Part shown: positions 1 to 42,906 of the stretch, piece by piece
Layout of the letters: each line of letters opens with the position of its first letter
How positions within the stretch are numbered: the stretch's first letter is position 1
Sequence record: PZ179882.1
Direction: 5' to 3' (one strand)
From: a phage
DNA: 64,000 nt
Translations under genes and position numbers: made by a program
Notes under the pieces: generated by a model
Database searches by the model: none
Told to the model about the DNA's origin: nothing
What the model saw: only the letters and a program-made list of their open reading frames with translations

Positions 1-1185
1 TGATTCAAGAATAAATCCACCTGCTTTAGTAGGGTCTTTACGGTGAGGATAAATTCCTACAATTTTTAAATCAACATCAATTACTTCTTTAAATTTATAA
101 AGATTTTTTGAACGAGCATTTTCCCACAATCCATCGGTATTTTTGAGAATAATACCTTCAAGACCTTGGTCAATATATTTTTTATAAATTACCTTAGCTT
201 CATCTAGGTTATTTACTACTTGGTTTTCAATTAAAATTACTTTATCATATCCTGATGTCATTTGTTCTAGTTTAGAAAAACGTACATCATATTTTAAACG
301 AAACGCCGGAAGACCGTATATTTCTACCAACGGAACATAATCCCAGACCTGAAACTTCATGCATTTGGCTTCTTTTTCTGAAATAGTTCCCTTTAAAGAT
401 TTATTGGCGATTCCATTAGAAGCAGTACGAGATTCAGCTACTTCGGCAAACTCTTTAGCTTTACTATTTTCAGGAGCATCAAAAAGAAAATCTAGGCCTT
501 CTGGTTCCTTTTCAACTTGCTCATGGTATACCAATTCGCCATCGATTAACACGCCTTCTGGATGAATCTGGCGGGCTTCAGCAGTCATTTTGATTAACTC
601 TTCCTTAAGAAGATCTAATCCTAGGTATTCATTGCCAGCTCGCGATAAAAGACGAACATCATCTAATTCATCACCTCGGACTTCAGCAAAACACCGAGCT
701 CCATCTGCTTTTAACTGTGCAAAAGCTGGAAATTTTATATTCTTACTAATGCCTTTTTCATCATAAGAACTTGCCAGCATTTGAGGTTGTTCAGGAATTA
801 AACCTGGCCAAACTTTGTTTGCAATAGATACTGAAGCACCACATTCAAGGTCTCGCATCATAACTCGACGCAAAACTTCAACATCATCCTTTTTACCATC
901 GGTGATATAACCAGTTAATTCCTCAATTGCTGCATTGCCAGTTAATTTCCGAGTAGCTAACGTGAATTCAATGAAGTCAAGCATATCGGTAATAGTCAGC
1001 ATTCCAAAACTCTGGGTAGCAATACCAGGTTTAGGCCATTTCTTGATATAATACTGTAACCCACGAGAATAAGTCAGACGATATACTCGTTTAAGCAATT
1101 CATTATCTTTATTCTTTTCAAGAATTGCTTGCTTCTGTTTAGTTGATCCAATAGATGCTATTTCATTCAGAATTTTAAGAATCAT
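1..1185 (-). CDS. 30: ATP-dependent DNA ligase gp30, N-terminal ~395 codons (C-terminus lies beyond window start)
   Basis: Minus-strand ATG at 1185 reads MILKILNEIAS...; frame stays open to position 1 (…TKAGGFILES); matches T4 ligase from memory. Confidence 0.93.
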   Translation of the reverse strand, partial: MILKILNEIASIGSTKQKQAILEKNKDNELLKRVYRLTYSRGLQYYIKKWPKPGIATQSFGMLTITDMLDFIEFTLATRKLTGNAAIEELTGYITDGKKDDVEVLRRVMMRDLECGASVSIANKVWPGLIPEQPQMLASSYDEKGISKNIKFPAFAQLKADGARCFAEVRGDELDDVRLLSRAGNEYLGLDLLKEELIKMTAEARQIHPEGVLIDGELVYHEQVEKEPEGLDFLFDAPENSKAKEFAEVAESRTASNGIANKSLKGTISEKEAKCMKFQVWDYVPLVEIYGLPAFRLKYDVRFSKLEQMTSGYDKVILIENQVVNNLDEAKVIYKKYIDQGLEGIILKNTDGLWENARSKNLYKFKEVIDVDLKIVGIYPHRKDPTKAGGFILES

Positions 1186-2290: not shown

Positions 2291-2751
2291 AGAGAGTCTC
2301 TTAATAGGTTTAACACATCAATAAATTCAGCTTCAGTTAGTATTGTATCATCTTTTGTTAGACCACTAGCCATGCTGTGCTTCAAAACTTTTCCTTTCGA
2401 GGCTTGTAATGCATCGCGAAAGCCCCTGTTTTGGATCGCTGCTTCAAAATATGCATTTGTGTATAATTCTTTCCACGCTGGAGAGTATCTTGAAAACGGA
2501 ACTCCAAGCCAGAAGAGGGTCCCACGGTCCTGAGCTCTAGCATAAGACCTTCCAGCTTGTTGGGCGGCAAGCCCGGATAACCCAAATATACGACGTTGTT
2601 GTTCAGCATTTTTCACCTTACATCCTTGAAGGAATCCTTCGAGACCTCCAAATTGGATACCATCCATAACGAAAGGCCATTGGGCGAAATTGCTTAATGC
2701 ACATGATGGCCATCTAAAATTGCTTCTTATTTCTAGCTCAGACATTTTCAA
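2287..2751 (-). CDS. NADAR (YbiA-like) domain protein, 154 aa (30.3 slot)
   Basis: ALSNFAQWPF…DG…LEGFLQGCK resembles NADAR/DUF1768 N-terminal signature; ATGA overlap with downstream gene. Confidence 0.6.
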   Translation of the reverse strand: MKMSELEIRSNFRWPSCALSNFAQWPFVMDGIQFGGLEGFLQGCKVKNAEQQRRIFGLSGLAAQQAGRSYARAQDRGTLFWLGVPFSRYSPAWKELYTNAYFEAAIQNRGFRDALQASKGKVLKHSMASGLTKDDTILTEAEFIDVLNLLRDSL

Positions 2752-2944: not shown

Positions 2945-3138
2945 ACTAATTCCTTTAATCCATAGATAGGAGATAATTCATCACCCATACGAAGGTCTTC
3001 ATTTCCATCTACCCAGGAAACAATATAAGCCTCTTTTATTTGAACGTCTCTCCATTTAAATGCAGGCAAAACCTTAGAAATTAATCCAGGTATACCGACT
3101 CCCTTTAATTCAACAGTTTGACCCAAAAAGAATTTCAT
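2941..3138 (-). CDS. hypothetical protein, 65 aa
   Basis: Track ORF; 4-nt overlap with neighbours. Confidence 0.5.
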   Translation of the reverse strand: MKFFLGQTVELKGVGIPGLISKVLPAFKWRDVQIKEAYIVSWVDGNEDLRMGDELSPIYGLKELV

Positions 3139-8183: not shown

Positions 8184-8372
8184 AAGTTTTCCATGGTAAA
8201 GGCAGTTTAGTTTTCTTTACTGTTAGTTCAACATCAGGATTCTTTTCTCTTAATTTAAGGCATTCCTCCCAAGCTCTGATTTCACTAGTGAATATACAAA
8301 ATTGCCCATTACTAGTACCAACTAAACCACTATTTACAATAACAATAGCCCAAGTTTCATGATGCCAAGCCA

Positions 8373-8373: not shown

Positions 8374-9594
<1,221 letters not shown>

Positions 9595-11029: not shown

Positions 11030-12617
<1,588 letters not shown>

Positions 12618-36394: not shown

Positions 36395-37030
36395 TCACAG
36401 TTCAGATGCTACGGTGATTACAGCTTCAATGTTTTCTGCTGAACGTTTAATGTCAAGATACACATTACCGTTTTTAGCGATTTTACATGACATTCCGATA
36501 TCAGTAAATTTCTGAATATGATGTTCCATCATTTTGTATCCAAAAATTCGCATATTTCCATTATTGTTAATTTCAAAATTACGAATTCCGTGAGTGCGTT
36601 TTTCTAAAATAGCAAGATAGTTACTGCGGTAAGTTTCAACCTTTTTGAGAACAAATCCATTTTCATCTAAAAGTTTTAGCATGTGGTCTTTATCTTCTTC
36701 CATATCGGAAGTAATCTCACGAGCTTTACGAGTTGCTCGTTTTTTCAGCAGTTCAGGAGCGTTTTCCTGTGCGTATAAAGTTGCTGCATTTGAAATAATA
36801 TCCTGAGCTTCACCAGTAATGATTAATCCATCACCAGATTTCTCCACCAGGCCTTTTTTAATCAATACCCCAATATTACTATTAACTACTGCATTACCTA
36901 AATCTGGATGCACCTCACGAACTTCTGCAGCTGTAATGAAATCTTTCTTAGCAATGGTAATTAAAATCGCAGCAGTTTTTTCATTCAGAACATCGTTAGA
37001 AGCTTTGATGATGTAAGTTACTTTAGACAT
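36395..37030 (-). CDS. motA: middle-transcription activator MotA, 211 aa
   Basis: MSKVTYIIKASNDVLNEKTAAILITIAKKDF… matches T4 MotA. Confidence 0.95.
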   Translation of the reverse strand: MSKVTYIIKASNDVLNEKTAAILITIAKKDFITAAEVREVHPDLGNAVVNSNIGVLIKKGLVEKSGDGLIITGEAQDIISNAATLYAQENAPELLKKRATRKAREITSDMEEDKDHMLKLLDENGFVLKKVETYRSNYLAILEKRTHGIRNFEINNNGNMRIFGYKMMEHHIQKFTDIGMSCKIAKNGNVYLDIKRSAENIEAVITVASEL

Positions 37031-37135
37031 TTTAATCTCCGTTTCAGTTCATTTATTTGATAGGTCTATAGTATCATGTTTAAAGCAGAAGTAAACACTT
37101 TTTTGCACTCTTTTTCAAGAGCTCTAATAAAGTAC

Positions 37136-37363
37136 TTACTTAATGTTCAGATTACGAACTTCGATTTCGTCTTCATGGGCAAAATCAAACTGTTTGAATT
37201 CTGTGTCACCTTTAAATTTAAAAATCATTGTGAAGAAAGTCAGAACACCAGGTTTTTCTTCACGAACTCCACAGATATCATATTCAATACCATCTACAAC
37301 CAGTTTGTTAGCAGTCAGAGCATTTTTAGCTTTAACGATTTCGTTTTCGATTTTAAATTTCAT
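37136..37363 (-). CDS. hypothetical protein, 75 aa (motA.1 slot)
   Basis: Track ORF with GGAGAT SD; preceded by early promoter cassette. Confidence 0.55.
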   Translation of the reverse strand: MKFKIENEIVKAKNALTANKLVVDGIEYDICGVREEKPGVLTFFTMIFKFKGDTEFKQFDFAHEDEIEVRNLNIK

Positions 37364-37412
37364 TTTTTGTATCTCCGGGTTGTTTGTTTCAGTTCATTTA
37401 TTTGATAGTTGT

Positions 37413-37442
37413 ATAGTACCACAGTATGCTTTGGTTGTAAAC
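37413..37442 (-). promoter_or_regulatory. T4-type early promoter (-35 GTTTAC, 18 nt, TGGTACTAT)
   Basis: Minus strand GTTTACaaccaaagcatactgTGGTACTAT + conserved leader ACAACTATC. Confidence 0.5.
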
Positions 37443-37463
37443 CGTTTTGTGAAAAAATTTTTG

Positions 37464-37493
37464 AAATAAAAAAGGGAGAGCCGAGGCTCTCCC
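37464..37493 (-). terminator. intrinsic terminator
   Basis: GGGAGAG-loop-CTCTCCC hairpin followed by T6 on minus strand. Confidence 0.65.
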
Positions 37494-37498
37494 TAAAA

Positions 37499-37648
37499 TT
37501 ACTGCATGACTGTGATAACTGTCATGATAACACGTTGAATTCCGAACGCAAGAAGACCTCCTGCTACGGCAGGAACAACACCTAAACCCGCCAGTAAAAT
37601 TCCACCAGATACTAATGCAGCGCTTGTGATACCAATGAATGGACTCAT
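37499..37648 (-). CDS. small Gly/Ala-rich hydrophobic peptide, 49 aa
   Basis: MSPFIGITSAALVSGGILLAGLGVVPAVAGGLLAFG…; ATG overlaps gene 52 stop (ATGA). Confidence 0.45.
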   Translation of the reverse strand: MSPFIGITSAALVSGGILLAGLGVVPAVAGGLLAFGIQRVIMTVITVMQ

Positions 37649-38973
37649 TTGATTTCCTCTAAATCTTTGGTGTATTCTGTAACTACATCAGTAGTTTTCC
37701 AATATTCGTTTTCTTCTTTTTTGGCTTTAGCTTCTTCAGCAAGTTTCTTTGCTTCGTCGGAAGTCATATGAAAAATGTTCATTCCAACTAGTTTATCAAC
37801 ATAAGAAGAATACATATCAATTTTAGAAAGTTCTTCGGTCAGTTCTTTGCGAGTTTTACCTTGTACAACAATTTCACCTGAAATTACTTTCTTAATGAAA
37901 TGTGCCTTGGCAAAAGCTAAACGAAATGCTGATTCAGTTTCTTTGATTTTGTTATCAATTCGTTTTTGGACATAAGTTTTACGAACTTCAACGAAGTCTT
38001 TGATTAAATCAACTACATTATCGTAAACTTGCAGCTTTCCTTTCTCATTAATGACGGTAATATTCTGGGAACGACGCTCAATCAACCCGAAGTCTTTCAT
38101 AATTTTTGCATGGCGTTCTTCTTCATTATCGCTCAAAGAGTATTCTTTTCGGAATTTAACTTTGAAGCCAAAGCCATGCTCACCACAAGCATCATCCCAT
38201 GTAATGAAGCCTTTATCTTCAAGCGGGTCTAAGATTTTACTCACATAAGTTTCACGATCATACTTATATGGAATCTCAGTGATATGCATTTGAGTTCGTG
38301 AAGTAAACTTATATGTTCCACGAATTTCATATTGCCCATCAATTTCAACGACTTCACCACGAAATTCTGGGAATTCTACCTTCGGTTTAGTTACTTTCTT
38401 TCCTTGAAGAGCTTGCAGTACAGCTTTCTTGACAGAAGAAACACTATGAGGAAGAATGTAAGTTGCATAACCAGTTGCAATACCGGAAACGCCATTAAGA
38501 AGAACAGTAGGAATAATAGGCAAATAGAAAGCAGGCGGAATGTGTTCTTTATCTTGATGTACTGGAGCATATTCAGTATCTTTATATACGTTATAGAAAT
38601 TTTTACTTACACGAGCAAAAATATAACGACTTGCTGCTGCCTTTTGGACAGTACGAGAACCAAAGTTTCCTTGACCGTCTAACAGAGGAAAGTTATTATT
38701 CCAAGTGTTAGCCATCAAAGCACCTGCGTCTTGCGCAGAGTTTTCACCGTGATGATATCCAAGGTCCGCTACACCGCCTGCGATAGAAGCGAGTTTGTGA
38801 AACTTATCTTTATTTCCTCGTGCCAAATCAAGAGCTCGAGCAATAACAAATCGTTGAACTGGCTTAAATCCGTCAATCATATTTGGAATGGCACGATTTT
38901 CAACCGTGTACATAGCATAAGCCAATGCTTCATTATCAATGATACTTTTTAAATCACGATTATTCAGTTGCAT
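37645..38973 (-). CDS. 52: DNA topoisomerase II medium subunit gp52 (GyrA-like), 442 aa
   Basis: MQLNNRDLKSIIDNEALAYAMYTVENRAIPNMIDGFKPVQR… matches T4 gp52. Confidence 0.95.
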   Translation of the reverse strand: MQLNNRDLKSIIDNEALAYAMYTVENRAIPNMIDGFKPVQRFVIARALDLARGNKDKFHKLASIAGGVADLGYHHGENSAQDAGALMANTWNNNFPLLDGQGNFGSRTVQKAAASRYIFARVSKNFYNVYKDTEYAPVHQDKEHIPPAFYLPIIPTVLLNGVSGIATGYATYILPHSVSSVKKAVLQALQGKKVTKPKVEFPEFRGEVVEIDGQYEIRGTYKFTSRTQMHITEIPYKYDRETYVSKILDPLEDKGFITWDDACGEHGFGFKVKFRKEYSLSDNEEERHAKIMKDFGLIERRSQNITVINEKGKLQVYDNVVDLIKDFVEVRKTYVQKRIDNKIKETESAFRLAFAKAHFIKKVISGEIVVQGKTRKELTEELSKIDMYSSYVDKLVGMNIFHMTSDEAKKLAEEAKAKKEENEYWKTTDVVTEYTKDLEEIK

Positions 38974-38977
38974 AAAT

Positions 38978-39118
38978 TTACCATACTAGTGAATGTAGTG
39001 CCATAATAACATCAGAAATGAAAAGCACGACTTGAATTAATCCGAACATTACTCCATAATATAGCGCTACCAATAAAGTAGCAAGGGCTAATGAATAGCC
39101 CAAGATTTTCTTAATCAT
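38978..39118 (-). CDS. small membrane peptide, 46 aa (52.1 slot)
   Basis: MIKKILGYSLALATLLVALYYGVMFGLIQVVLF…; single TM helix. Confidence 0.45.
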   Translation of the reverse strand: MIKKILGYSLALATLLVALYYGVMFGLIQVVLFISDVIMALHSLVW

Positions 39119-39269
39119 TGGTAGATAACAACACAAATGTTAAATATGCACACATACCCTGGGCTAAAGCTTGTGAAAACACACTGCTAGCATCAATACA
39201 GATAGTTAAAACACATGCTACTATCCAACAAATAAATGAAATAACTCCTAATAGTTTCGCAATATTCAT
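39111..39269 (-). CDS. small membrane peptide, 52 aa (ac-like, acridine-resistance slot)
   Basis: GAGGAAAA SD then MNIAKLLGVISFICWIVACVLTIC…; adjacent to stp as ac is in T4. Confidence 0.5.
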   Translation of the reverse strand: MNIAKLLGVISFICWIVACVLTICIDASSVFSQALAQGMCAYLTFVLLSTND

Positions 39270-39276
39270 ATTTTCC

Positions 39277-39357
39277 TCACTGGCGTCCGAAGACGCCTTT
39301 AGTTTTAAGATTGTTACGATAGAACTGCATTACATGTTCGTTATGGAAATTACTCAT
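39277..39357 (-). CDS. stp: Stp peptide (suppressor of three-prime phosphatase; PrrC-EcoprrI effector), 26 aa
   Basis: Translates [26 protein letters not shown]; ATG overlaps ndd stop. Confidence 0.8.
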
Positions 39358-39812
39358 TAATATGCCTGCAAAACAAATTTAAAGTTATCAGCCAACATAC
39401 GATTCATTTCTTCAAGCGTTTGATACTCAGAATGATGATTACGAGTAAACGCTAAAGCTAACTGACCTTTTCCAAATCCCGTCGTCAGAGGTTTCATCTT
39501 AGAAGCAGGTAGATAAAATACCGTGTATGGAACATTGTTATTTGCAATAGTACGCGCAAGCTGAGATCGACGCTGGCGAATATGACTTAGAACTGCACTG
39601 AATCCTTGCTTAGAACGCTGATTACCTACATAAAATCGTGCAGATACACACGGACTATCAAATGGACCACCAAATTTGCTCACTAAAAAGTAAAATCCAG
39701 GTTTAGATAAAATATCTTTATGCGGAGTTCCCAAAAACCACTCACCGCCCTTGATTGTACCAATAACAGTAGCGCCTGCGTTGTTCAGATCAGTAACAGT
39801 CATGTATTTCAT
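39357..39812 (-). CDS. ndd: nucleoid disruption protein Ndd, 151 aa
   Basis: [33 protein letters not shown]… matches T4 Ndd; start at Met 19 of track ORF. Confidence 0.9.
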
Positions 39813-39870
39813 ATTAATTTCCTCTAAATTATTTTCTACTCCATGGCCGCATGAATACGCGGCCATTAAA

Positions 39871-40086
39871 TTAATCGTCGCAGTCGACGCTCAATTCCCA
39901 AAACTCTTCTACAGTATAAGTTTCAGTATCATTTTCAATACAGAAACGTTCATTACTGTTATTTGCTAAAGTAGCATTAACTGTCGGTTTCTCGTTAGTG
40001 CTCTTAAGAGGTGAAATACGAATTAACTGATCACCGTTATCTAAACAAAAAATTTCACCAACTTTTACATCTTTAAAACTTTTCAT
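39871..40086 (-). CDS. hypothetical protein, 71 aa (ndd.1 slot)
   Basis: Track ORF. Confidence 0.5.
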
Positions 40087-40094
40087 AATTCACC

Positions 40095-40202
40095 TCAAGG
40101 AGTATAAAATCCAAACGCAGTTGTTGACCATCCCATCCAATATGGGAAATTTGCACCAATGTAAAACATAAGAATATAAAACCAAATGCTTAGTAAATTC
40201 AT
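40095..40202 (-). CDS. tiny hydrophobic peptide, 35 aa
   Basis: MNLLSIWFYILMFYIGANFPYWMGW…; start overlaps upstream stop; no clear SD. Confidence 0.35.
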   Translation of the reverse strand: MNLLSIWFYILMFYIGANFPYWMGWSTTAFGFYTP

Positions 40203-40420
40203 CATTTTACACCATTCCAAATTGTTTCAACCACAGATTTTAAACCATTTTGATGAATATCAATTCCGACTACTGTCATCAAATAGATTCCAACTACAAC
40301 TGAACCTAAGGCAAAAATCAGCATGAAAATGAATAAAGCCGGAAAAATATTATCGAAAAACCACTCAATAAATGTAAAAGCACTGCGTTTACGCTTCATA
40401 TTTTCCTCACATAAATCCAA
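40202..40420 (-). CDS. small membrane protein, 72 aa
   Basis: Track ORF; two hydrophobic segments. Confidence 0.55.
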   Translation of the reverse strand: MDLCEENMKRKRSAFTFIEWFFDNIFPALFIFMLIFALGSVVVGIYLMTVVGIDIHQNGLKSVVETIWNGVK

Positions 40421-40520
40421 AGTAAACGTTTAATACATCAATCATTAAAACGATTGGGAATATACTCAAAACTATTAGTATTATAACTACATTCCATATA
40501 GCTTTAACAATCTTTTTCAT
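40407..40520 (-). CDS. tiny membrane peptide, 37 aa
   Basis: MKKIVKAIWNVVIILIVLSIFPIVLMIDVL…; lies just downstream of early promoter cassette; track ORF N-terminal extension judged spurious. Confidence 0.45.
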   Translation of the reverse strand: MKKIVKAIWNVVIILIVLSIFPIVLMIDVLNVYFGFM

Positions 40521-40534
40521 TTTCTGTTCTTCCG

Positions 40535-40578
40535 TAGTTGATAGTTGTATAGTACCACGGAAGAACAGTCTTGTAAAC
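40535..40578 (-). promoter_or_regulatory. T4-type early promoter with conserved leader (PeSL-like cassette copy)
   Basis: Minus strand GTTTACaagactgttcttccgTGGTACTATACAACTATCAACTAC. Confidence 0.5.
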
Positions 40579-40585
40579 AACTTTT

Positions 40586-40684
40586 TTAAAAATATTCGTA
40601 ATAAATGTGAATACCAACTACTACCGCTGAAACCTGTGCAACCCACCACGCACAAGCAATAAGTACAGAATTCAAAATTTTCAT
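40586..40684 (-). CDS. tiny membrane peptide, 32 aa
   Basis: GAGG SD then MKILNSVLIACAWWVAQVSAVVVGIHIYYEYF. Confidence 0.4.
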   Translation of the reverse strand: MKILNSVLIACAWWVAQVSAVVVGIHIYYEYF

Positions 40685-40767
40685 AATAACCTCATCACAA
40701 AAGTAAATGTTAAACAAATTACTGGAATACTAATTAACCAAACAAAACACCACCATAATGAACTCAT
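40681..40767 (-). CDS. tiny membrane peptide, 28 aa
   Basis: MSSLWWCFVWLISIPVICLTFTFVMRLL; ATGA overlaps on both sides. Confidence 0.4.
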   Translation of the reverse strand: MSSLWWCFVWLISIPVICLTFTFVMRLL

Positions 40768-41027
40768 AGTTCAATCTCAATGATTTCAAGATTATTTTCT
40801 TTAATAGCTTTCTTTAAATCATCGTAAATAAGAACTTCCCAAGAATTGTTTAAATCACCATTCAACAAACGCTCTTGTTGCAATTTATCAGTAAGATATG
40901 GTTGGTCTGATTCATATTTAGACAATCCCAATGAAATAAATGATGTTGCATCGTCAATTTCAGAATATTGTACATGAACAAATTCACCTGTGATTTTATG
41001 TTTAACATAAAAGAATTTAAATTTCAT
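40764..41027 (-). CDS. hypothetical protein, 87 aa
   Basis: Track ORF preceded by early promoter cassette. Confidence 0.55.
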   Translation of the reverse strand: MKFKFFYVKHKITGEFVHVQYSEIDDATSFISLGLSKYESDQPYLTDKLQQERLLNGDLNNSWEVLIYDDLKKAIKENNLEIIEIEL

Positions 41028-41039
41028 TTTTGTTCCTCT

Positions 41040-41084
41040 GTAGTTGATAGTTGTATAGTACCACGGTCCTTGTAGTATGTAAAC
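41040..41084 (-). promoter_or_regulatory. T4-type early promoter with conserved leader (PeSL-like cassette copy)
   Basis: Minus strand GTTTACatactacaaggaccgTGGTACTATACAACTATCAACTAC then SD and ATG at 41027. Confidence 0.5.
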
Positions 41085-41100
41085 TAGTTTATGAAATTTT

Positions 41101-41658
41101 TTAGATGGAAAGATACCATCCGTTGTAGTTGCTTTTTCGCACTACCTTACGAAGGTCTTCTCTATCACCAATGAACTTCGGAGTGTACTGGATGACACCT
41201 GGATGAATTTCTTTAGTGTTGAATATAATTATACAGTCCGCGACTTGATGATTCAGAATGGGCCCTAGATTTATTCCAGAACCATATGGATACTCTCCGC
41301 TGCATCCTGTTGTTACCGAAATCCAACGTGAGTCAGTTTGATGGGTTTTGACTTCTACGCGAAGTCCGCAGTATCTTGGGTGCGCCAATACATCCCATGC
41401 ATATGTATACGGGTCATTAACATCCTCTTGGCCTTTGTTAACATACCCGCTCAGCCAATCTGCTACAAAAAACTCTGCATACACAGCGATACGGCATCTT
41501 TCGATGACTTCTGCTTTATCCTGATTAGGATTTTGTTTTAAAGAGTATCTTGCTGTATCAGCAATTTTGACCTTCATTTCACTAGTCAAATCATTGTTCG
41601 ATAGGGTAAATGTCGGAATCTGAAATAGTCTCTGTAAACCTGGATTCGTTTTCTGCAT
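41101..41658 (-). CDS. denB: endonuclease IV, 185 aa
   Basis: 185-aa ORF directly after rIIB/denB.1 as in T4. Confidence 0.8.
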   Translation of the reverse strand: MQKTNPGLQRLFQIPTFTLSNNDLTSEMKVKIADTARYSLKQNPNQDKAEVIERCRIAVYAEFFVADWLSGYVNKGQEDVNDPYTYAWDVLAHPRYCGLRVEVKTHQTDSRWISVTTGCSGEYPYGSGINLGPILNHQVADCIIIFNTKEIHPGVIQYTPKFIGDREDLRKVVRKSNYNGWYLSI

Positions 41659-41723
41659 TAAACTTTCCTTTTACGTCGGAATCACTGATATTCATATAAT
41701 AAATCATAGTTTCTCTTAAAACA

Positions 41724-41741
41724 AAAGGGCCGAAGCCCTTT
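41724..41741 (-). terminator. GC hairpin (AGGGC-TTCG-GCCCT) + U-run after 64-aa ORF
   Basis: Hairpin followed by TTTTGTTTT on minus strand; near-identical hairpin at 41954..41970. Confidence 0.5.
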
Positions 41742-41744
41742 ACT

Positions 41745-41939
41745 TTATTTGAATTGTGCAATTCTTTTTTCTAAACAATCTGCATAAGATTTCATTGAGA
41801 TGAACTGTGAAAGCAGTAATTCTTGCTCAACTGCATTAACCGTTGAAAACTTTTCACTTTCTAAAAATTTGCTCAATGCATTAATTTTGAGCATTAATTG
41901 ATCGTATTCTTCTTTTACTCGTGCTTGATAACCTAACAT
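41745..41939 (-). CDS. hypothetical protein, 64 aa (denB.1 slot)
   Basis: Track ORF; AAGGAAA SD. Confidence 0.55.
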   Translation of the reverse strand: MLGYQARVKEEYDQLMLKINALSKFLESEKFSTVNAVEQELLLSQFISMKSYADCLEKRIAQFK

Positions 41940-41967
41940 AATTTTCCTTAGTTAAGGGCCGAAGCCC

Positions 41968-42906
41968 TTATTTGAATTGTTCAGTAACGTCTTCAACTAC
42001 TTCGTATTGACAGGTACGCATTTTAGCATCGTTGTAATCAATCGGAATTGATACTACATCGCGAGGATGAACTTTAACTTTTACAACTCGGCTGGTTGAA
42101 CTGCCAAAGTGACGAATATAAGATTTAGAACACACATGCAGACCACGAGAACAAGTTTGTGTATCATCGTCATTCACACGAGTGCGTGGCATTTTAACTA
42201 CTTTACCAGGACTGTTATCAAAAGTATTTGAATGACAGTCAAAGTAATTACTGCGAACTACTTTCCAAGCATAGAAGTAACCATCTTCTGTAATTTCAAT
42301 ATCGTTTGCTACCAAGAAATCAAAGAGTCGAGATACCGCTTTTTGGCTCGGGTTTTCCAACAGATTTTCCAAGAACGGAAAATAAAATTCAAAGTTTTCG
42401 CCTTTTTCCATCGAATCGAGAATACGATCAACTAAACCAGACCGCAATTCAATGTTTTGATAGAACAAGCTTCCACCTTCAATTCGAACATCACCCGAAA
42501 TATATTTTTCAACAGCGCGACGAACGTTAATTTTTTGTGCCGCTTCTTCCAATTTATCTGCAACAAGCAGGTTAAGAATTTCCTGGAAGTTTGAATGAGT
42601 ATTAGGAGTTGCGTTATAAGTTACGCCGTCAACAGTAATTGAAATGAATTTTTTAGATGCATTCCAAATAATGTCAGATTTAGCAACTGGAGCAATAACT
42701 ACATCGCTATTAACTTTAACTGTAATATCACCGCTAATAGTAACTTTAGAGCGTTTAGCTTCTTCAGCATTTTTCAAAACACGACGGATTGTGTCAACCG
42801 ATACACCTTGCCAATCAGCCAATTCCTGTTGGGTGTAATTACCACTTGAATACAGCTTAACAATTTCAGCTTGTTCGTTTTTGGTCAGGCATTTAATATT
42901 GTACAT
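41968..42906 (-). CDS. rIIB: rIIB membrane-associated protein, 312 aa
   Basis: MYNIKCLTKNEQAEIVKLYSSGNYTQQELADWQG… matches T4 rIIB. Confidence 0.95.
   Translation of the reverse strand: MYNIKCLTKNEQAEIVKLYSSGNYTQQELADWQGVSVDTIRRVLKNAEEAKRSKVTISGDITVKVNSDVVIAPVAKSDIIWNASKKFISITVDGVTYNATPNTHSNFQEILNLLVADKLEEAAQKINVRRAVEKYISGDVRIEGGSLFYQNIELRSGLVDRILDSMEKGENFEFYFPFLENLLENPSQKAVSRLFDFLVANDIEITEDGYFYAWKVVRSNYFDCHSNTFDNSPGKVVKMPRTRVNDDDTQTCSRGLHVCSKSYIRHFGSSTSRVVKVKVHPRDVVSIPIDYNDAKMRTCQYEVVEDVTEQFK

Follow-up and report, generated by a model that had tools for sequence, protein, structure and literature searches.

Gene organization of the stp-ac-52.1 region

The minus strand of the window (the whole 64,000-nt stretch of DNA analyzed, from a Tequatrovirus) carries three tightly packed small ORFs at 38978..39357. 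We identified these as stp (39277..39357), encoding the 26-aa Stp, a putative inhibitor of type IC restriction and trigger of PrrC; ac (39111..39269), encoding the 52-aa membrane peptide Ac, which by analogy with T4 would confer acriflavine sensitivity on infection; and 52.1 (38978..39118), encoding the hydrophobic gp52.1, 46 aa when counted from its ATG. A preliminary description of this DNA had reported ORFs of 46, 52, and 26 aa at this place, and all three are present on the minus strand, far beyond what chance would give. It had also placed them downstream of gene 52, which is true in plus-strand coordinates only: transcriptionally they lie upstream of 52, in the order ndd, stp, ac, 52.1, 52, motA.1. 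The gene directly upstream of stp is ndd, which encodes the nucleoid disruption protein (39357..39812, minus strand, with its start taken as the T4-like MKYMTV). After 52.1, the next gene of the operon is gene 52, encoding the medium subunit of topoisomerase II (37645..38973, minus strand), and the final gene ahead of a terminator is motA.1 (37499..37648, minus strand), which encodes a 49-aa hydrophobic peptide. In the T4 annotation (NC_000866), motA.1, 52, 52.1, ac, stp, and ndd likewise lie on one strand, with identical order and overlaps.

A 1.2-kb query around the cluster matched 570 phage records (best identity ~97%). The 380-nt cluster itself occurs in 466 records at 95% identity or more, with a 100% match in Shigella phage ESh28. 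The flanking proteins are similarly close to those of T4, with 441 of 442 residues identical for gp52 and 48 of 49 for MotA.1 (phrog_3487, E = 7e-31). Ndd aligns to T4 Ndd and, in its 151-aa form, matches Pfam PF06591 with E = 1e-90. We also observed a longer ndd ORF extending to 39866, in which the first ATG of a perfect palindrome (ATGGCCGC-N8-GCGGCCAT, 39843..39866, minus strand, between ndd.1 and ndd) is in frame and would give 169 aa. Phage ACG-C40 is annotated with the corresponding long Ndd of 170 aa; T4 Ndd has 151 aa and starts at MKYMTV, corresponding to 39812 here. An 80-aa ORF on the opposite (plus) strand, at 39118..39360, has no PHROG family match and was treated as spurious.

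The junctions within the cluster are compact. The ndd stop and the stp ATG have one base in common (TAATG), as in T4, and the stp stop codon, TGA, lies within the ribosome-binding site of ac (UGAGGAAAAUAUG), where the Shine-Dalgarno sequence GAGGAAAAU overlaps it. Next, ac shares 8 nt with 52.1 (AUGAUUAA), the same as in T4, and 4 nt separate the end of 52.1 from the ATG of gene 52. Because 52.1 has no visible Shine-Dalgarno sequence of its own and shares these 8 nt with ac, we infer that the two genes are translationally coupled, and the TAATG junction suggests the same for ndd and stp. A TTG at 39136, 18 nt upstream of the 52.1 ATG, would give a product of 52 aa and is the start used in the mechanical ORF list.

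Upstream of the cluster, the minus strand has two sites that match the consensus GTTTACA-17-TGGTACTAT, the nearest at 40549..40577 and a second one at 41055..41083. A third, near-identical site (GTTTACA, 17 nt, TGGTACTAT) lies at 37413..37441 on the same strand. We take sites of this type to be T4 early-promoter-like. At the other end, just past motA.1, an intrinsic-terminator-like hairpin consists of a 9-bp GC-rich stem followed by a T run (37473..37494, minus strand). Use of these candidate promoters is suggested by their sequence, in which case transcription would probably start ~1.2 and ~1.7 kb upstream and end at the strong terminator past motA.1. Most simply, ndd.x, ndd, stp, ac, 52.1, 52, and motA.1 would share one polycistronic early transcript, which would fit the reported “delayed early” expression of stp (PMC3014915). 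Searching the minus strand from 37300 to 42000 with the regular expression TGCTTnA-N11-13-TAnnnT returned no full match to a MotA-box middle promoter.

The 26-aa ORF encodes a T4-type Stp

The preliminary description had proposed that the 26-aa ORF encodes Stp and had named a mismatch with the authentic peptide as the observation that would speak against this. Protein alignment to T4 Stp (NP_049878) gives 26 of 26 identical residues and hence zero mismatches. The ORF also matches Pfam PF08133, the anticodon nuclease activator family (Nuclease_act), over its full length (residues 1-26 of the 26-position profile, 75.3 bits against a cut-off of 25, E = 2e-21) and phrog_6763 (E = 4e-21). Its genomic position is that of T4 stp, between ndd and ac and upstream of 52.1 and 52, and the 1-nt overlap with ndd is the same; at the nucleotide level the two genes differ at two positions, both synonymous. 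The identical 26-aa peptide is found by tblastn in 423 of 50,697 phage records. Its computed properties are a mass of 3.2 kDa and a basic pI of 10.3, and the 18-residue N-terminal core defined in T4 (PMC3014915) is intact, residues 4-14 included.

Between codons 1-18 of stp here and those of the Kagunavirus K1ind2, we counted nine synonymous and no non-synonymous changes; the same comparison with T4 gives two and none. The core of Stp is thus under purifying selection, and stp is a real protein-coding gene. By its sequence and placement, the 26-aa ORF is an authentic T4-type Stp, and every defining feature of Stp that can be read from DNA is present. Ac and gp52.1 likewise align as T4 genes. 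The stp-ac-52.1 cluster is therefore correctly identified, and it is already known: these are well-known T4 genes.

Stp relatives in other phages

Diverged Stp peptides from T2, TOPO13, VR7 (Gaprivervirus), NC-G (Dhakavirus), RB68, K1ind2, ZL19, and XT34 all score above the Pfam cut-off. Across diverged alleles, residues S2, H5, N6, H8, M10, Q11, R14, and K18 are invariant, with only tblastn-derived alleles counting for the positions within HNEHVMQ, as the IMG/VR alleles were fetched with a pattern that fixes these letters.

Members of the Stp family also occur in siphoviruses that are not T4-like, from Kagunavirus (K1ind2) and Drexlerviridae (ZL19 and XT34); they score above the Pfam cut-off where tested and are mostly unannotated. 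The stp-like genes lie at 2501..2578 in K1ind2 (L003), 2986..3078 in ZL19 (L012; ZL19 is also L004), 801..878 in XT34 (L010), and 8214..8294 in a ~49-kb IMG/VR contig (L016). On an almost invariant core, the siphovirus peptides carry one of three classes of tail (…KGVFGK, …SLGRLGK, and …RIKKILNSTNC). In K1ind2, the stp stop overlaps the ATG of the downstream gene (ATGA), and in one IMG/VR contig (L025, from 238) a Kagunavirus-type stp has lost its stop and reads through in frame into the gene that follows (…KGVFGGMKITDIEAF…). Dhakavirus-type stp genes (NC-G, L008 768..875; also L034 and L039) are missing the canonical codon-1 ATG and read as a longer ORF. The NC-G version has 35 aa, beginning MIKKSWATVLRSNFHNEH…, and its immediate upstream neighbor is an Ac-like gene instead of ndd.

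Within ~0.5 kb of the stp-like gene, both ZL19 (L012 1998..2537) and the ~49-kb contig (L016 8724..9296) carry a homolog of the phosphatase domain of PNKP. The ZL19 homolog matches Pfam HAD_PNKP (E = 1e-17), and the call in the contig was made by eye from a shared DxDGT motif. The two carry different Stp alleles. In the T1-like phage ZL19, tblastn with T4 Rnl1 found no Rnl1 ligase, and the PNKP phosphatase-domain homolog is present with no kinase domain.

We considered horizontal transfer of the exact T4 stp allele into siphoviruses, as two ~50-kb IMG/VR contigs carry the exact T4-type Stp together with the hairpin described below. This was rejected because the ORF content of both contigs is that of T4-like genome fragments, with the same ndd-stp-ac-52.1 order.

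Ac and gp52.1 are small hydrophobic proteins with contrasting conservation

The 52-aa ORF corresponds to ac: all 51 residues of T4 Ac (NP_049877) are identical, with a single Thr inserted near the C-terminus (…LLSTND here and …LLSND in T4, hence the length of 52 aa), and the protein matches phrog_2501 with E = 3.7e-25. As in T4, ac sits between stp and 52.1 and overlaps the latter by 8 nt. The allele with the extra Thr is also found in ACG-C40 (identical), TOPO13, and one further sequence (L022). In T4, loss of ac makes the phage acriflavine-resistant, and expression of Ac sensitizes E. coli (bioRxiv 10.1101/2025.06.30.662393; cited in PMC13250531); the current proposal is that membrane-inserted Ac interferes with AcrAB-TolC efflux (bioRxiv 10.1101/2025.06.30.662393). 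Carried over to this phage, Ac would be a two-helix membrane peptide through which infected cells accumulate acriflavine, possibly by a block of efflux via AcrAB-TolC. In the T2 record PV958097 (L005, about 900..1050), we observed that codon 11 of ac is an in-frame stop (MNIAKLLGVI*), and this T2 stock is probably an ac-null, acridine-resistant lineage. Neither ac nor stp is annotated in that record.

For gp52.1, 45 of 46 residues are identical to T4 (NP_049876), both proteins having 46 aa; the one difference, A14T, is shared with TOPO13 and VR7. It matches Pfam DUF7396 over residues 1-46 of 46 (81.9 bits against a cut-off of 27, E = 3.5e-23) and phrog_3595 (E = 1e-25). The protein hardly varies among Tequatrovirus, Gaprivervirus, and Dhakavirus (L006-L009), while the adjoining Ac diverges almost beyond recognition. 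This near-invariance in three genera indicates strong constraint on the 46-aa sequence.

The preliminary description had called both the 46- and the 52-aa product single-TM peptides. Simple single-pass topologies for both Ac and gp52.1 would suit their strong hydrophobicity (GRAVY 1.42 and 1.68, respectively), and the single-sequence AF2 model of gp52.1 is one continuous helix over residues 2-45 (pLDDT 94.5). We nevertheless consider that pair of topologies rather unlikely. Ac has a strong hydrophobic segment at residues ~6-25 and a moderate one at ~33-49, and in diverged homologs the two are split by a conserved polar loop, D/E-x-S-S-V-F-x-Q (DASSVFSQ or GETSVFLQ). Its single-sequence AF2 model has helices at 3-24 and 28-51 joined near D26/A27 (pLDDT 76.5), in agreement with the two helices of a published ESMfold model (bioRxiv 10.1101/2025.06.30.662393). 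A single-TM Ac appears unlikely. In gp52.1, the stretch of uncharged hydrophobic residues that follows KK3-4 is broken only by D36 and runs for ~40 residues, twice the length of one TM span. The predicted helix would be compatible with either a long tilted TM helix or a hairpin, between which a single-sequence AF2 model cannot separate.

A CUUCGG hairpin in the last codons of stp

A CUUCGG tetraloop hairpin (GGCGUC-UUCG-GACGCC, 39282..39297, minus strand) spans stp codons 21-25 plus the first base of codon 26 and ends 3 nt upstream of the ac Shine-Dalgarno sequence. The MFE and centroid folds both contain it, and its local folding energy is -11.5 kcal/mol. Hairpins of the CUUCGG type are a known hallmark of T4 mRNAs (PMC4371310). 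The stp hairpin is shared by T4, RB68, NC-G, and VR7 (the last with a UUUG loop) and is absent from T2-type alleles, whose tail reads NFGILGFKK, and from siphovirus alleles (GVFGK, with other codons). In the plus-strand orientation, a T-rich run comes after the palindrome, and the score is terminator-like. The stem is unchanged where it occurs, which is not statistically distinguishable from the rate in the core, given only four synonymous sites in the stem and few independent lineages.

Across the window, CTTCGG occurs at 24 sites, compared with 13.6 expected from shuffled sequences. Complementary stems of 4-10 bp flank ten of the 24, several of these with A-rich/T-rich ends (e.g. AAAGGGCTTCGGCCCTTT); examples are at 41735, 41964, 47245, 57288, and 63184 on the minus strand and 29014 on the plus strand. 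A search of Rfam with positions 37000..42000 (E <= 1) returned only a chance-level match, at the terminator.

Such a hairpin could act as a barrier to mRNA decay, as a folding nucleus that sets translation of ac, 52.1, and 52, or as a terminator of antisense transcripts. We regard it as improbable, though, that the hairpin is a selected RNA element rather than a consequence of encoding GVFGR, and we hold the same of a separate idea, that Stp and the phosphatase-only PNKP homolog of T1-like phages make up a portable module combining an anti-restriction trigger with partial repair.

The window encodes the tRNA repair enzymes

Two further genes connect stp to tRNA repair, both intact in the window and both on the minus strand. 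The pseT gene, encoding polynucleotide kinase/3′-phosphatase, lies at 8376..9278 (95% identical to T4 PseT over 301 aa by tblastn; Pfam HAD_PNKP and AAA_33), and rnlA, encoding RNA ligase 1, lies at 11033..12154 (98% identical to T4 Rnl1 over 374 aa by tblastn; Pfam RNA_lig_T4_1 and T4_Rnl1_C). As judged from these homologies, the window holds the complete phage side of the Stp/PrrC/repair system.

Small genes of the cluster are rarely annotated

According to the preliminary description, a six-frame track had omitted all three genes. The ORF lister used has a default of 60 aa, and the lengths of 26, 46, and 52 aa, all below this value, are a plausible account of the omission. Public records have a similar gap. 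Of the 28 records with an identical Stp that were sampled, one names Stp, six give only a hypothetical protein there, and in 21 the sole feature is ndd, which has one base in common with stp. In Shigella phage ESh28, no feature is annotated under the 100% identical cluster. Micro-genes of this size fall under the usual ORF-length thresholds and are routinely missed, so explicit checking for them is warranted.

Discussion

We hold with high confidence that this region is a T4-type early-operon segment that encodes Stp, an inhibitor of type IC restriction sensed by PrrC, together with Ac and gp52.1, with the resulting damage repaired through Pnk and Rnl1. The functional steps are all carried over from experiments in T4 by way of sequence identity, and they would proceed as follows. 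Stp, a 26-residue cytoplasmic peptide, would block DNA cleavage, but not methylation, by type IC enzymes, EcoprrI and EcoR124I among them. In prr hosts, the anticodon nuclease PrrC would be kept latent on EcoprrI. On sensing the block, and with GTP hydrolysis and dTTP, PrrC would cut tRNA-Lys 5′ of the wobble base. Pnk and Rnl1, encoded by the phage, would then heal and reseal the tRNA, cancelling the damage done by PrrC.

The T4 literature bears directly on the peptide found here. In prr+ E. coli, Stp alone is necessary and sufficient to activate the latent tRNA-Lys anticodon nuclease (PMC3014915, PMC1484252), and activation of PrrC additionally requires GTP hydrolysis, dTTP, and unmodified EcoprrI target DNA (PMC3014915, PMC1484252). 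T4 Stp relieves restriction, not modification, by EcoprrI and the type IC enzyme EcoR124I, and leaves type IA enzymes unaffected (PMC3014915). Loss-of-function suppressor mutations fall at residues 4-14, within a conserved N-terminal stretch of 18 residues, and removal of the last eight codons lowers both activities only moderately (PMC3014915). The role that the preliminary description had given to Stp, inhibition of EcoprrI leading to activation of PrrC, agrees with these reports (PMC3014915, PMC1484252, PMC12707154) and, by analogy, would hold for the identical peptide of this phage. A 2025 review calls the manner in which Stp inhibits EcoprrI “unknown” (PMC12707154), and no structure of the complex turned up in our literature search on Stp, PrrC, and cryo-EM.

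The hairpin raises the question of whether the 81-nt stp ORF could be conserved mainly as RNA, as a hairpin and an operon spacer, rather than as a translated peptide. A stable CUUCGG structure does fill its last codons, 3 nt before the ac Shine-Dalgarno sequence, and the eight C-terminal codons are largely dispensable for activity (PMC3014915). The purely synonymous divergence of the core from K1ind2, however, is that of a translated sequence, and siphovirus and T2-type alleles retain the peptide core without the hairpin. Moreover, T4 genetics and work with synthetic or plasmid-expressed Stp identify the peptide as the active agent (PMC3014915), and no Rfam family matches the stp region. The synonymous pattern, the hairpin-less alleles, and T4 genetics effectively refute an RNA-only reading of the whole ORF, which we regard as vanishingly improbable.

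A different doubt concerns what the authentic peptide is selected for. T4-type phages have glucosyl-hydroxymethylcytosine in their DNA, and this DNA already resists type I restriction, so it is not obvious what selective advantage Stp would give them. Its role in T4-like phages might then lie with another target, activation of PrrC and inhibition of type IC enzymes being side effects. That the core is almost invariant in Tevenvirinae, Kagunavirus, and Drexlerviridae suggests an interaction under strong constraint, and the mechanism and direct target of Stp are undefined (PMC12707154). Against such another target, expression of Stp by itself relieves restriction by EcoprrI and EcoR124I and not by type IA enzymes, and its loss-of-function mutations lie at the conserved residues 4-14 (PMC3014915). 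The presence of Stp in siphoviruses is also what would be expected of an anti-restriction gene, assuming ordinary DNA in those phages. We consider a different selected target very unlikely and favor Stp as the type IC inhibitor that PrrC senses.

As an anti-restriction protein, Stp can be compared with several better-known factors. Ocr and ArdA mimic DNA and are large and acidic. Stp is instead a 3.2-kDa basic peptide that is specific for type IC enzymes, and it has no sequence relation to Ocr, ArdA, or ArdB/KlcA. The outcome is nonetheless the same as for T7 Ocr, ArdA, and ArdB/KlcA, in that type I restriction is relieved and modification kept (PMC12707154).

Stp, EcoprrI, PrrC, Pnk, and Rnl1 are a classic example in which a host “guard” detects the anti-restriction factor of a phage and the phage mends the tRNA damage that follows. 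The biology of this system gains nothing new from an identical stp in a T4-like genome. The prediction for the phage is that it would grow on prr+ hosts, pseT or rnlA mutants would fail there, and mutations in stp would suppress that failure.
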